In this document: positions 26,702-60,170 of the stretch, piece after piece | Position numbering within the stretch: the stretch's first letter is position 1 | Layout of the letters: each line of letters opens with the position of its first letter | Origin: Candidatus Moraniibacteriota bacterium | Lineage (GTDB): Bacteria > Patescibacteriota > Minisyncoccia > Moranbacterales > UBA2206 | NCBI GenBank assembly: GCA_049303905.1 | Contig: JBAQNP010000017.1 | Span: forward strand, 4 to 64,003 | Direction of reading: 5' to 3' | Length of the DNA: 64,000 bases | The notes under the pieces: generated by a model | The model's database searches: none | Told to the model about the DNA's origin: nothing | The model's input: only the letters and a program-made list of their open reading frames with translations | Translations under genes and position numbers: made by a program

Positions 26702-27577
26702 TTAATTAGTCATTTGGCAAGAAAAAGAATTTTTGCAGACATATTCGATATCCCCTTTTTCATCTGTTCGCAAAACATTTATTTTTTTGACTTTGAGACG
26801 CTCCAAAAGTTCCCCTGCTGGGTGGCCATAACTATTATTTTTGCCGACAGAAATAATGGCATCAATTGGATTAACTTTGTTCAAAAACTCTTGGCTGGTG
26901 GCATTTTTTGAACCATGATGAGAAACTTTCAGCACTTTTGAACTCAAATCAAATTTAGCATCCAAAAAAGCTGATTCTTTTTCCAAAGGAAAATCACCCG
27001 TAAAAAGAAAAAAGTTTTGGCCATAAGTCAGTTTTGCTACGATTGAATCTGCGTTAGTATCTTTTGGGTTATTTATTAAATTAAAACTGGGATAAATAAT
27101 TGCCAAATTAGCTTCTTTGATTTTTATATTCATCCCCTCCTTACCTTTCAATCTTTCGATATTCTTATTTTCAATTATTTCTAAATAATTTTTATACACC
27201 TGCGAATCACTCTCGGCGCTATTATCAATCACTTTACCAATTTTATAATTTTTCATCACATCAATGAGTCCCCCGATATGATCCTGATCTGGATGAGTGG
27301 CGATAACTATTTCAATTTTTCTGTCCCAAAATGGAATATATTTTCCCAATTTTTCCATTTCCTTTTGACCGCTTGGCCCGCCGTCAATCAAAATCTGATT
27401 TTGACCTTGCGAAATCATAATTGCATCACCCTGCCCAACATCAAAAAAAATAATCTTTAATTTTTGATTTTGAGAATGCCAAATGATACCAGCTAAAATA
27501 AGGCTGATGGTAAATAGAAATATTAGGAAAAAATAGATGTGTTTTTTATGAGACATACTCGTTTTCATGCTGAACAA
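26702..27577 (-). CDS. comEC: ComEC/Rec2 C-terminal metallo-beta-lactamase domain protein (separate ORF)
   Basis: MBL motif ATHPDQDHIGG, N-terminal membrane anchor; directly downstream of the ComEC channel ORF. Confidence 0.7.
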   Translation of the reverse strand: MFSMKTSMSHKKHIYFFLIFLFTISLILAGIIWHSQNQKLKIIFFDVGQGDAIMISQGQNQILIDGGPSGQKEMEKLGKYIPFWDRKIEIVIATHPDQDHIGGLIDVMKNYKIGKVIDNSAESDSQVYKNYLEIIENKNIERLKGKEGMNIKIKEANLAIIYPSFNLINNPKDTNADSIVAKLTYGQNFFLFTGDFPLEKESAFLDAKFDLSSKVLKVSHHGSKNATSQEFLNKVNPIDAIISVGKNNSYGHPAGELLERLKVKKINVLRTDEKGDIEYVCKNSFSCQMTN

Positions 27578-27624
27578 GTTTTCAGCATCTACATCGGATC
27601 CTGAAACAAGTTCAGGATAACATT
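27567..27624. repeat. Tandem hairpin element (CATGCTGAAC..TTCAGCATC + GGATCCTGAAAC..TTCAGGAT) at the comEC split junction
   Basis: Member of the TGTCAT/ATGACA hairpin family; overlaps stop of 27612..29078 and start of 26702..27577. Confidence 0.5.
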
Positions 27625-29078
27625 TTATTTTTATTTTTTAAAAAATAAATTACTCCTGCTAAAATTATATACCAAATCACCACTCCCCACCACGCGATTT
27701 TCATTTCGATTGAGGCATATTTAAAACTAGCCAAATAATTTATAGTGACTGTTTCATATTTCAAAGGTAAATAAGTCAACCAAGAAAAAATAATTGCGAT
27801 TGGTTCAAAAACAAAACTAAACATAATTGCCACAAAACCCAAGAGCATTGTGAGTGGAACAATGGGCAGAATTAGAATGTTCGCCAGAAGTGAAATAAGC
27901 GAAAGTGTTTTGAAATTAAACATAATAATCGGCAAAACAAAAATCTGCGCGGAAAGTGAAAGCAAGAGAATTTCTGCAATTGTAGAGAAGAGGCTCTGCT
28001 TTGTTTCTACAAAATGCAAAAAATAATTTTCGAAAAATGGATAGAGGTAAACTATGCCTATTGTCGCCAGAAAAGAAAGCTGAAATCCGATATCCCAGCG
28101 AAGAAGAAGCGGGTTAGCAAAAAGCATCACACAGGCGGAAAACAAAATCGCATTCTGAGCATTTCCCAATCGACCATTTTTCATCGCCCAAATGAGAAGC
28201 ACGCCCATTAGCCCGGCCCGCACTGCCGAAGCGCTGAGTCCCGTAAGAATCACAAAAAGAATAATGCCTGTTACCGCAAACCAAAAAGCTTGCCGGCGCC
28301 AGAGTCCTAAAAATATCCCCAAAAGCATTAGATATTCCGCAATGATCGTCACGTTGTAACCGGACACTGCCACAATATGCGTCATGCCCGTGCGCGAGAA
28401 ATCATCTTTCACCTCTTTTGACAATTGGTTACTTCCGCCCAAAAGAAGACCTGAAAGAAGCCCCGATTGTGGCGCAGGAATCAGTTGATTTATATTTTCG
28501 TTAAATTCGTTTTTTATTTTAATGAGAATTGCCAAAAATCTATTCCCCCTATTTTCACTTAATTTTTCTATTTTGGGATTTTTGCATTCATAAAAAATTC
28601 CGTCTTTCGCCAAATACATTTGATAGTCAAAACTGCCGTCGAAATTTTTCGGCCTTTCCAACTGACAATTTATTCTTAGTGTATCGCCATAGCTGTATTT
28701 CTCATAAATACTAGCGTTAAGCAAAAAAATTTCCATCTTGTTTTCAATTGGAGCAAGAACAAGTTGCTGAATTTTTTCTTTAATCATTGGCTCTTTGGAA
28801 ATCACAACCACGCCAGAAAAATTATGTTTGTTCGCACTTAGGTTTTTTATTTTTTCTAATTTTCCAGAAACCAAAAATATCCCCAAAACAAAAAAAGCCA
28901 TCGAAAATCCAACAATGGCCAACTTGTTTTTATAAAAAACAAAAATAACAATAAGCGCTAAAATCAAAAATAATAGAGTTGCAAAATTATCAATTAATTT
29001 CGGATAATAAAAAGAAGCCGTCCCCACTCCTCCAATAAAAGATAATGCTAGAATGAAAAATATGCGAGATTTTTCCAT
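27612..29078 (-). CDS. comEC: ComEC/Rec2 membrane channel domain (DUF4131 + competence domain)
   Basis: Polytopic membrane protein; LLSGLLLGG...TGMTHIVAVSGYNV matches ComEC competence domain. Confidence 0.75.
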   Translation of the reverse strand: MEKSRIFFILALSFIGGVGTASFYYPKLIDNFATLLFLILALIVIFVFYKNKLAIVGFSMAFFVLGIFLVSGKLEKIKNLSANKHNFSGVVVISKEPMIKEKIQQLVLAPIENKMEIFLLNASIYEKYSYGDTLRINCQLERPKNFDGSFDYQMYLAKDGIFYECKNPKIEKLSENRGNRFLAILIKIKNEFNENINQLIPAPQSGLLSGLLLGGSNQLSKEVKDDFSRTGMTHIVAVSGYNVTIIAEYLMLLGIFLGLWRRQAFWFAVTGIILFVILTGLSASAVRAGLMGVLLIWAMKNGRLGNAQNAILFSACVMLFANPLLLRWDIGFQLSFLATIGIVYLYPFFENYFLHFVETKQSLFSTIAEILLLSLSAQIFVLPIIMFNFKTLSLISLLANILILPIVPLTMLLGFVAIMFSFVFEPIAIIFSWLTYLPLKYETVTINYLASFKYASIEMKIAWWGVVIWYIILAGVIYFLKNKNKMLS

Positions 29079-29081
29079 TTT

Positions 29082-58996: not shown

Positions 58997-59041
58997 AATT
59001 AAAATAATAGCTTAAAAAATAAGAGAGAGCAACTGCCATAA

Positions 59042-60133
59042 CTAGACCTCTCTTTCGATAATATATTTGGCCAATTTTTCCATAAAAAACTTTGCCTCAG
59101 TGTTTTTAAATTCAATTTTTTTGAGCGCTTCCAACGACTGCGCCACAAAATTTTTAGCTAGCTCTTGATTGTATTTCAAGGCGCCAGTTTCTCTAATTAT
59201 TTGTCTAAATTCTTCTAGTTCATTCTTAGTTAGATCTTTTTTGCCTAAATATTTTTGCAAAGTTTTTTTCTGCTGGCGCGTTCCATTTTGCAAAGCCTTG
59301 AGTAAAAGCAATGTCTGCTTTCCTTCTGACACATCTGATCCAACCGGTTTACCAGTTTTCTTTTCCGAACCAAAAATTCCCAAAATATCATCTCTGATTT
59401 GAAAAGCTTTTCCTAGTGGCAAAGAATAGTTGCTAAAGGCGTCCAGAATTTTTTTGTTCGAATTGCCACTCAAAATAGCACCAAAATGAAGCGGGCCTTC
59501 GAAAGTATAGCGAGAAGTTTTACCTTCAAACATATGAAGAATTTCTTTTTCCGTCGTTCGTCCGCGATTTTCCATCACCACATCCAGCATTTCTCCGGCG
59601 CAAGTGATATATACAATGTTTTGCATTTTGTCCAGCGCCTTGATAATTATTTCCGGAGAAAATTTTGAATTGAAAATTATCTCATTAGCCATCGCATAGG
59701 CAATGTCGCCTGTAATAATGGCCATTGAATTTCCAAAATGCGCGCTGTCTTCTTTGGATTTGGAAATTATACTTTGCCCAATTTTTTTATATTTTTCATG
59801 CACTGTGGTGATGCCATGTCTTTTTTCATCGCGATCGATGATGTCATCATGAATCAAAAGAAAACTGTGAATTATCTCCAAACTCATGGAAACTTCCAAA
59901 ATTTTCTGGTCCTCTTTTCCGCCACTCGCCAGATAACCATAGTAGACCAAGGCCGGTCGAATTCTTTTTCCTCCTGCCAGAGTAAAATCTGCAATCATCT
60001 TGATCGCTTGGCTCGCCAAAAAATCCACTTCTTTGGCTTTTTTTATCTTTTGATCAAAATATTTTTCCAAACGAGGATCAAATATTTTCTTATAATTTTT
60101 CAAAATATCAATCGCGTCCATAAAATATGTCAT
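59042..60133 (-). CDS. Polyprenyl diphosphate synthase (trans-isoprenyl transferase)
   Basis: First DDxxD LLIHDDIID and second GKAFQIRDDILG aspartate-rich motifs. Confidence 0.85.
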   Translation of the reverse strand: MTYFMDAIDILKNYKKIFDPRLEKYFDQKIKKAKEVDFLASQAIKMIADFTLAGGKRIRPALVYYGYLASGGKEDQKILEVSMSLEIIHSFLLIHDDIIDRDEKRHGITTVHEKYKKIGQSIISKSKEDSAHFGNSMAIITGDIAYAMANEIIFNSKFSPEIIIKALDKMQNIVYITCAGEMLDVVMENRGRTTEKEILHMFEGKTSRYTFEGPLHFGAILSGNSNKKILDAFSNYSLPLGKAFQIRDDILGIFGSEKKTGKPVGSDVSEGKQTLLLLKALQNGTRQQKKTLQKYLGKKDLTKNELEEFRQIIRETGALKYNQELAKNFVAQSLEALKKIEFKNTEAKFFMEKLAKYIIEREV

Positions 60134-60170
60134 TCCCGTGAATCCGCCAGCTGGCGGAGGGAATCTAGTC
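60128..60170. repeat. TGTCAT-hairpin element (TGTCATTCCCGTGAATCCGCCAGCTGGCGGAGGGAATCTAGTC)
   Basis: Same TGTCATTCCC...GGGAATCTAGT termini as 53358-53386; internal palindrome CCGCCAGCTGGCGG. Confidence 0.5.

Follow-up and report, generated by a model that had tools for sequence, protein, structure and literature searches.

Ssn-related hairpin units and their inverted pairs in a Candidatus Moranbacteria contig

The closest described relatives of the repeats analyzed here are the 28-nt NTS (CGTCATTCCCGCGMAVGCGGGAATCYRG), its variant NTSvar, and the degenerate Ssn-related motif (SRM), which were defined by Chenal et al. (2025, Nat Commun 16:2388; PMC11893778) and for which the published pattern is HGTCWYN(0-2)YYVSBRHN(0-5)WNVSBRGN(0-2)RNCYNB. 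Across phyla, SRMs flank the genes of 94-amino-acid (aa) single-domain GIY-YIG proteins (SsnA, CDD accession cd10448). SsnA binds the hairpin only as single-stranded DNA (ssDNA) and only on one strand, shows no binding to RNA, and cuts a few nucleotides upstream; cleavage is governed by the three bases before the palindrome, and binding depends most critically on the C directly after it (PMC11893778). In N. meningitidis, the SsnA/NTS system lowers transformation by NTS-flanked DNA (PMC11893778). Hairpin elements of this kind were analyzed in 64,000 nt of contig JBAQNP010000017.1 (hereafter the window), which is essentially the entire 64,037-bp contig of a metagenome-assembled genome of Candidatus Moranbacteria (Moraniibacteriota), a bacterium of the candidate phyla radiation (CPR). 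The elements are of this already described SRM/NTS kind, tied to GIY-YIG Ssn nucleases and not to the REP-associated tyrosine transposases (RAYTs) of repetitive extragenic palindromes (REPs). The analysis established their membership in the family by sequence, structural covariation, the association of both of their subtypes with Ssn-like genes elsewhere, and a positional difference among relatives.

Hairpin units of the SRM family in the window

Seven loci with a total of approximately 13 hairpin units were found. Each unit can be written as (T)GTC–[AT…stem-loop…AT]–C(T), and inverted pairs bounded by TGTCAT and ATGACA account for most of them. Direct reading and two independent hairpin scans gave the common unit as GTC, a perfect 8-bp stem with AT at its start and end, a loop of 4-5 nt, and a C that is usually followed by T. 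Seven units have this strict form (29315, 52063, 52115(-), 53359, 53441(-), 57835, and 57870(-)), compared with an average of 0.77 and at most 3 in 60 dinucleotide shuffles, and TGTCAT…ATC(T/C) is common to all seven. The hexamer TGTCAT occurred 52 times in the window, where 30 +/- 6 occurrences were expected. The stems fall into two groups: a GAA subtype, with AT[G/C]C[T/C]GAA stems and a loop of CTTGT or TTTAT, and an NTS-like group with ATTCCCGC/ATCCCCGT stems and 4-nt loops. When folded as DNA, every locus was far more stable than its shuffles, with z from -3.7 to -8.8.

An initial annotation of the window had listed six of these loci (A to F), all of which were confirmed at their coordinates; a seventh locus and the known link of the family to GIY-YIG Ssn nucleases had escaped it. 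Deviations from the shared TGTCAT/ATGACA architecture that it described were seen at locus A, in the degenerate right flank of locus B, and at the solo locus F. Locus A (27567-27621, minus strand) comprises two decayed GAA-type units in direct orientation (GTT-ATCCTGAActtgtTTCAGGAT-C and TAG-ATGCTGAAaacttgTTCAGCAT-G), with TTC…/…AAC in place of the TGTCAT/ATGACA termini and without GTC/GAC flanks. It lies between the two open reading frames (ORFs) of ComEC, namely the Lactamase_B ORF, which starts at 27556, and the Competence-domain ORF, the stop codon of which (27612-27614) is part of the first unit. Locus B (29314-29412) is a composite pair in which the forward unit TGTCATCCCCGTgaatACGGGGATCCAG (29314-29341, plus strand) is followed by a 31-nt spacer and an inverted unit at 29366-29412 (minus strand), ATTCCCGCA-[23-nt insert]-TGCGGGAAT, with the insert in its loop and a degenerate outer flank.

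Loci C, D, and E are inverted pairs with their TGTCAT ends facing outward. The locus C pair (52062-52140), between mgsA and the methylpurine glycosylase gene, joins a G-type unit (52062-52089, plus strand) to a C-type unit (52113-52140, minus strand), with a 29-nt spacer. The locus D pair (53358-53465) is composed of the NTS-type units TGTCATTCCCGCGTATGCGGGAATCTAG on the plus strand and TGTCATTCCCGCGAAAGCGGGAATCTAG on the minus strand with a 60-nt spacer, and it occupies a 5′ untranslated region (UTR), between a promoter-like site (53508-53480) and the ribosome-binding site and start of mgsA. The locus E pair (57834-57895), between trx and trxB, joins a C-type unit (57834-57861, plus strand) to a G-type unit with a TTTAT loop (57868-57895, minus strand), with a 12-nt spacer. 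The spacers of pairs C and D had no homologues in the approximately 2.5 Mb of loci that were fetched for comparison. Locus F (60128-60170, plus strand) is a solo unit of the NTS-like type, TGTCATTCCC-gtgaaTCCGCCAGCTGGCGGA-GGGAATCTAG, whose loop contains a nested palindrome of 16 nt; it immediately precedes the true start of the polyprenyl synthase gene.

The seventh locus (12483-12510, plus strand) is an NTS-type unit, TGTCATTTCCGCGCAGGCGGGAATCCAG, that has one stem mismatch and matches the published SRM pattern. It is read in frame (SVISAQAGIQ) within a type I restriction-modification (R-M) HsdM-HsdS fusion ORF (11242-13656), in the variable linker that joins the methylase part to the specificity part. 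A clean insertion of the unit into the R-M gene was considered and was not demonstrable, as the homologues, including those on plasmids, have an equally long variable linker.

The SRM pattern matched four units (12483+, 29314+, 53358+, and 53438-), as opposed to a mean of 0.08 and a maximum of 1 in shuffles, and the minus-strand unit of pair D is identical to the 28-nt NTS consensus except at base 1. The GTC on the 5′ side of the palindrome and the C on its 3′ side are present in the seven strict units, in F, and in 12483, and the flanks are decayed in both A units and in the right unit of B. The window units share the YGTCAT–palindrome–ATCY layout of the published system, including its cleavage and binding determinants, the GTC and the 3′ C, and most copies are likewise intergenic; pair D shows near identity to the Neisseria NTS. 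They differ from it in that the host is a CPR bacterium, about half of the units belong to the GAA-stem subtype with 5-nt loops, and the copies are mostly gene-less heterotypic inverted pairs, with no ssn gene in the 64 kb.

A further comparison is with the dRS3/NIME arrays of Neisseria. Both units of pair D carry the dRS3 core ATTCCC-N8-GGGAAT, and in both systems the repeats bracket short intergenic spacers. However, the window is without long arrays of RS segments or an associated filamentous prophage, and the ATCCCCGT and ATSCYGAA stems are without the core. In this exact form the core was confined to the D units: 12483 has ATTTCC, B has ATCCCC, the two halves in F are separated by N21, and the GAA types have no core.

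dRS3 has been reported as the target of a phage recombinase. The elements might by analogy be attachment or target sites of an IS110/Piv-type site-specific recombinase, as dRS3 is for Neisseria filamentous prophages, and the ATTCCC…GGGAAT core in the D and F units would fit such a role. Yet the GAA subtype has no core, and Pfam scans of window ORFs placed no recombinase or prophage next to any window copy. A role of this kind is most improbable.

Selection on the hairpin structure, which the initial annotation had proposed from a compensatory change at 52063-52142, was borne out. The two halves of locus C, ATGCTGAActtgtTTCAGCAT and, when reverse-complemented, ATCCCGAActtgtTTCGGGAT, each form a perfect local hairpin. 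In pairs C and E the long hairpin that would form between the two units is bulged exactly at the positions where the units differ, and each local hairpin is perfect. The same pattern was observed across genomes, as described below.

The ATGACA termini also score as -35-like hexamers that face outward and have plausible -10 boxes at a distance of 16-18 nt (52062-52067, 52135-52140, 53460-53465, 57834-57839, and 60128-60133). The pairs could consequently serve as a source of weak outward promoters.

Association with small GIY-YIG genes across genomes

The comparison material consisted of Logan contigs and of metagenome, genome, and viral stretches, labelled L001 and so forth. One genome per species was scanned for the GAA subtype with the pattern GTCATSCYGAANNNNNTTCRGSATC, in which pairing was not required, and the subtype was found in at least 120 genome stretches from many phyla. 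The hosts among the matches listed, as named in the record titles, included Sphingomonas, Pedobacter, Treponema, Gastranaerophilales, and Rickettsia, as well as Saccharibacteria, Nomurabacteria, Falkowbacteria, Kerfeldbacteria, and Gracilibacteria. Among the 162 copies in the stretches listed, the loop was conserved (CTTGT in 63, TTTAT in 36, and CTTGA in 17), the base before GTC was C or T, and the base after ATC was T or C. At each of the two degenerate stem positions, 160 of the 162 copies showed complementarity, compared with about half by chance, which argues for selection on the single-strand hairpin structure and for a true repeat family. GAA-type sequence strings were not found in the text of the literature searched.

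A small GIY-YIG ORF was present in five of the 120 GAA loci listed, and four of the five were within 360 bp of a unit. For example, in a Kerfeldbacteria locus (L067), which is also from the CPR, a GAA unit lies 10 nt upstream of a small GIY-YIG ORF, and in a Lutibacter locus, two G-type/C-type pairs are found directly upstream of the GIY-YIG gene. In L331, where carA and carB flank the gene, a C-type unit precedes it and an inverted G-type unit follows it, and L111 is a further case besides L067 and L331.

The GIY-YIG proteins were aligned with their homologues, and the alignment was used to fetch 80 metagenome loci that encode relatives. At least one unit was found within 300 bp of the Ssn-like gene in 50 of these 80 loci, and units were found on both sides in 35. 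The unit density was 2.68/kb near the gene and 0.086/kb beyond 1 kb, a 31-fold difference. The layout was also oriented: upstream units were on the gene strand by 48 to 8, and downstream units were on the opposite strand by 49 to 13. Both subtypes occurred at these genes (54 NTS-like and 48 GAA units), so that the SRM–gene–SRM arrangement of the published system, while seen here outside of the window, applies to the two types that the window contains. In addition, the nearest neighbor among the GIY-YIG proteins had the same flanking unit type in 36 of 44 cases (permutation p < 0.0005); that is, protein relatedness tracks the flanking unit type. Representative Ssn-like proteins were full-length single PF01541 domains of 90-96 aa according to Pfam, and NCBIfam contains no model specific to them. 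None of the Ssn homologues searched was labelled as Moranbacteria.

GAA-type units were also observed in at least 120 viral stretches (IMG/VR contigs, L211-L330). In the multi-copy viral contigs, all GAA copies were on one strand (7/7, 5/5, 4/4, and 3/3), and no Ssn-like gene was found in the 1.0 Mb of GAA-bearing viral stretches.

Gene-less pairs, mobility, and alternative explanations

The window pairs have the same outward-facing layout as the SRM–ssn–SRM cassettes, minus the gene, and this shared inverted arrangement makes them look like gene-less derivatives of such cassettes. Among all fetched loci, 56 outward-facing inverted GAA pairs with gaps of up to 150 nt were found at 49 loci, and 48 of them joined a G-type to a C/T-type unit (39 C/G and 9 G/T). 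Only three G/G and three C/C pairs were found, where about 11 of each were expected. Pairs C and E of the window follow the same heterotypic rule, each joining a G-type to a C-type unit. As the nearest unit upstream of Ssn-like genes was also of the C/T type in 19 of 21 cases, the two ends are consistently different.

The comparison with REP-like or MITE-like elements (MITE, miniature inverted-repeat transposable element) in the initial annotation was apt in view of the inverted doublets, the exact TGTCAT/ATGACA bounds, and a homologous composite at another site in a relative. Eight related Moranbacteria loci totaling approximately 115 kb contained a single element, as opposed to seven loci in the 64 kb of the window. 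L002, whose malic enzyme is 94% identical, is syntenic across D, E, and F and has other sequences and no units there, including a different hairpin family at the E site. At the locus B site, L128 and L129 have an unrelated hairpin, and L002, L128, and L129 are without units at the window sites that they cover. The single element is a composite pair in L129, between apbE and the TSP3-repeat gene, that is 83% identical to window element B. The identity takes in the 23-nt loop insert and the spacer, the homology ends at TGTCAT and ATGACA, and the two copies are separated by a compensatory stem change. In the window, B is on the other side of the TSP3-repeat gene, one gene away, and the site used in L129 holds a different spacer. 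The homologue of B at a different intergenic site, together with the lack of units at the window sites in other close relatives, suggests that the elements are mobile.

As a separate observation, two Logan contigs of run SRR28062879, L001 and L127, break off at the repeats. Both are 100% identical to the window over the compared parts; L001 terminates within element E, and L127 begins approximately 30 nt ahead of element A. These breaks fit multi-copy repeats in that genome.

Together, these observations make it likely that the elements are SRMs of the family that includes the Neisseria NTS and dRS3 and that the pairs are non-autonomous derivatives resembling MITEs or REPINs, the inverted REP doublets. 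As oriented DNA hairpins, they would be bound as ssDNA and cut directly upstream by a single-domain GIY-YIG Ssn. The layout of the pairs is that of a cassette without its nuclease gene, in which one end carries a C/T-type unit and the opposite end a G-type unit; such pairs would spread or be exchanged between intergenic sites. We infer that a cognate Ssn is encoded by the genome to which the window belongs. Such a nuclease would cut imported or replicating ssDNA at the window sites, as in N. meningitidis, and may have a role in the spread of the copies.

Several points weigh against this interpretation. No GIY-YIG ORF was found in the 64-kb window by Pfam, regular expression, and hidden Markov model searches, which cover this contig only. 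The six GAA-type units are not matched by the published SRM pattern. The flanked GIY-YIG proteins are putative members of cd10448, as judged from their size, their single-domain architecture, and the NTS-matching units beside them. Ssn cuts only the strand that carries the forward unit, which amounts to one cut per strand in an inverted pair and does not by itself explain excision or copying. Furthermore, the relatives show replaced intergenic spacers and not clean insertions, and no target-site duplications were found at C, D, E, or the L129 element. A similar picture could arise from allelic exchange through recombination; with no target-site duplications and a differing neighboring spacer, it is inseparable from transposition here.

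A bolder proposal, which we put forward only tentatively, is that the pairs are non-autonomous members of an undescribed class of mobile elements. Its autonomous form would be a cassette of approximately 400 bp in which a gene for a 90-aa GIY-YIG ssDNA nuclease lies between a C/T-type hairpin and an inverted G-type hairpin. With ssDNA as the intermediate, the element would move or home; it would have crossed many bacterial phyla, including CPR lineages with tiny genomes, and would also be present in viral contigs. The obligate combination of G with C/T ends would reflect distinct left and right recognition. The IS200/IS605 insertion sequences provide a parallel, in that the cassette ends carry different hairpins (C/T-type in 19 of 21 upstream units), although the hairpins of the SRM cassette are on opposite strands and not on the same strand. 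We know of no strand-transfer enzyme for SRM cassettes.

Elements that act at the RNA level, such as intrinsic terminators, attenuators, or hairpins for the stabilization or processing of mRNA, offer an alternative that we regard as improbable, though it was one of those raised by the initial annotation. REP-like hairpins affect the fate of mRNA, the hairpins here are stable, and all of them lie within transcribed DNA, either between co-directional genes or in the 5′ UTRs of such genes. However, the stems are not followed by a T-run, and a terminator scan called none of the unit stem-loops; its only call within an element was a weak stem over the 3′ arm and spacer of D (53448-53433). The neighboring genes have canonical terminators of their own at 60316-60277, 53539-53517, and 51485-51454, and an Rfam search of the whole window at gathering thresholds returned two tRNAs only and nothing at the loci. 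The units were also oriented without relation to transcription, with 35 on the same strand as the flanking genes and 30 on the opposite strand in the genomes, and SsnA has no RNA binding (PMC11893778). A family of terminators or processing sites is accordingly not upheld.

The resemblance to classical REPs raises the question of mobilization by a RAYT, an IS200/IS605-like Y1 HUH transposase. As in bacterial interspersed mosaic elements (BIMEs) and REPINs, the units are short oriented palindromes recognized as ssDNA and arranged in inverted doublets of two unit variants, and a single nuclease gene is flanked by repeats and accompanied by non-autonomous copies. The REPIN-like doublet is found at B, C, D, and E, and this is a resemblance of form only. 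The head of REPs is of the GTAG type, while the conserved 5′ flank here is GTC, and the associated protein is a GIY-YIG nuclease and not a Y1 HUH transposase, with units 31-fold above background near its genes elsewhere. Pfam scans of 63 window ORFs matched no Y1 transposase family, or any other transposase family, and RAYTs were not searched for in the other loci. Mobilization by a RAYT is therefore highly unlikely. Conventional DDE-transposon MITEs with terminal inverted repeats, which the short length, the inverted termini, and the differing positions among relatives might suggest, have very little probability, as target-site duplications are lacking at C, D, E, and the L129 element, solo and same-orientation units exist, and the covariation keeps the hairpins within units and not the identity between arms.

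The data extend the 2025 description of the Ssn/SRM system in several respects: a CPR host, a widespread GAA subtype missed by the published pattern, the conserved heterotypic joining of G-type with C/T-type ends in cassettes and gene-less pairs alike, and positional evidence for the relocation of whole pairs between intergenic sites. CPR bacteria are believed to rely strongly on the uptake of DNA, and a ComEC is encoded in the window; the hairpin and ssDNA-nuclease system, which restricts incoming ssDNA in Neisseria, would thus offer a direct handle on the policing of transformation in reduced CPR genomes. Each distinct unit type is also a candidate for a new specificity in Ssn-based ssDNA tools.

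The comEC junction, neighboring genes, and other repeats

The elements are located between co-directional minus-strand housekeeping genes. From A to F, the intergenic settings are the ComEC ORF pair, TSP3-repeat gene/comEC ORF1, mgsA/methylpurine glycosylase, yceG/mgsA, trx/trxB, and groEL/polyprenyl synthase. In relatives, a small gene of the PF02594 family is present between the TSP3-repeat gene and comEC ORF1. A comparison with L002 showed that loci D and F are in 5′ UTRs, as each follows a conserved terminator-plus-promoter block and precedes a start codon. An 80-aa ORF beside locus B (29053-29295) was considered as a nuclease candidate and was rejected, as its translation is without GIY-YIG features.

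The initial annotation had placed one copy at the junction that splits comEC. Locus A is indeed located where the two ORFs meet, but the split was not created by it. The homologues of the Lactamase_B ORF are stand-alone proteins of approximately 255-312 aa in every one of the best 120, and in L129 the Competence-domain and Lactamase_B ORFs are separate and only 3 nt apart, with no pair between them. A split caused by the element was consequently rejected: the two-ORF ComEC is conserved across Moranbacteria, and the split is ancestral. Relative to L129, the window junction has 52 extra nt that carry the two decayed units, and the L129 junction holds only ATCCTGAACTATGTTTCA, of which 17 of 18 bases match the first locus A unit. 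The junction sequence may be an old, eroding copy of a unit. Other inserts were found at the same place, including a 117-nt AT-rich inverted repeat in L130 (409-526) and a 1.4-kb insert with two unannotated ORFs in L128 (8417-9875), and the junction of the ComEC ORFs is an insertion hot spot.

The first part of the window (1-17000) contains a cluster that resembles a defense island. It encodes a TOTE AEP primase-helicase (4959-7163), RhuM (7274-8314), the type I R-M subunit HsdR (8643-11237), the HsdM/S fusion (11242-13656) in which the seventh locus lies, Abi_C (13660-14421), and a reverse transcriptase (15140-16117) accompanied by a helix-turn-helix gene (16104-16433). A truncated RhuM-family ORF of 171 aa (43032-43547), which covers only the first 99 of 252 profile positions, is found beside a tRNA (43641-43712) and may be the remnant of an integrated element. 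In addition, the gene for the anaerobic ribonucleotide reductase NrdD precedes a separate ORF of 84 aa with a match to the C-terminal end of the NRDD family (32882-33136 and 33250-35442), and the same arrangement was observed in L128 and L129.

Other repeats were also present. At 21582-21630 and 50527-50555, a second family of hairpins was found, in which CCTCTCCCttaGGGAGAGG is fused to ATGTCGCGtactCGCGACA and GGAGAGGG, and its composite also occurs in the trx-trxB spacer of a relative (L006, approximately 8180-8230). A third family, found at 32753-32803, forms a hairpin whose stem is 19 bp long (ATATTAACATTTTAGCATT…). A motif related to it is in the trx-trxB spacer of L002 (8640-8695) and L003, at the exact place of window element E, which indicates that intergenic slots are shared by different hairpin families. 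A 24-nt repeat, TTATTCGTAATTTAGCTAGATTCG, occurs in two exact copies at 30315-30338 (minus strand) and 53544-53567 (plus strand), with no such repeats expected by chance. The latter copy abuts a GC-rich segment of 45 nt (53567-53612) that is absent from L002, and the copy in L128 has a GC palindrome inserted. Finally, short tandem arrays were found just past stop codons, where a GCGAAT-rich array follows groEL in the window (60330-60375, minus strand) and (GAAACAT)n follows trx in L006 (8075-8115).

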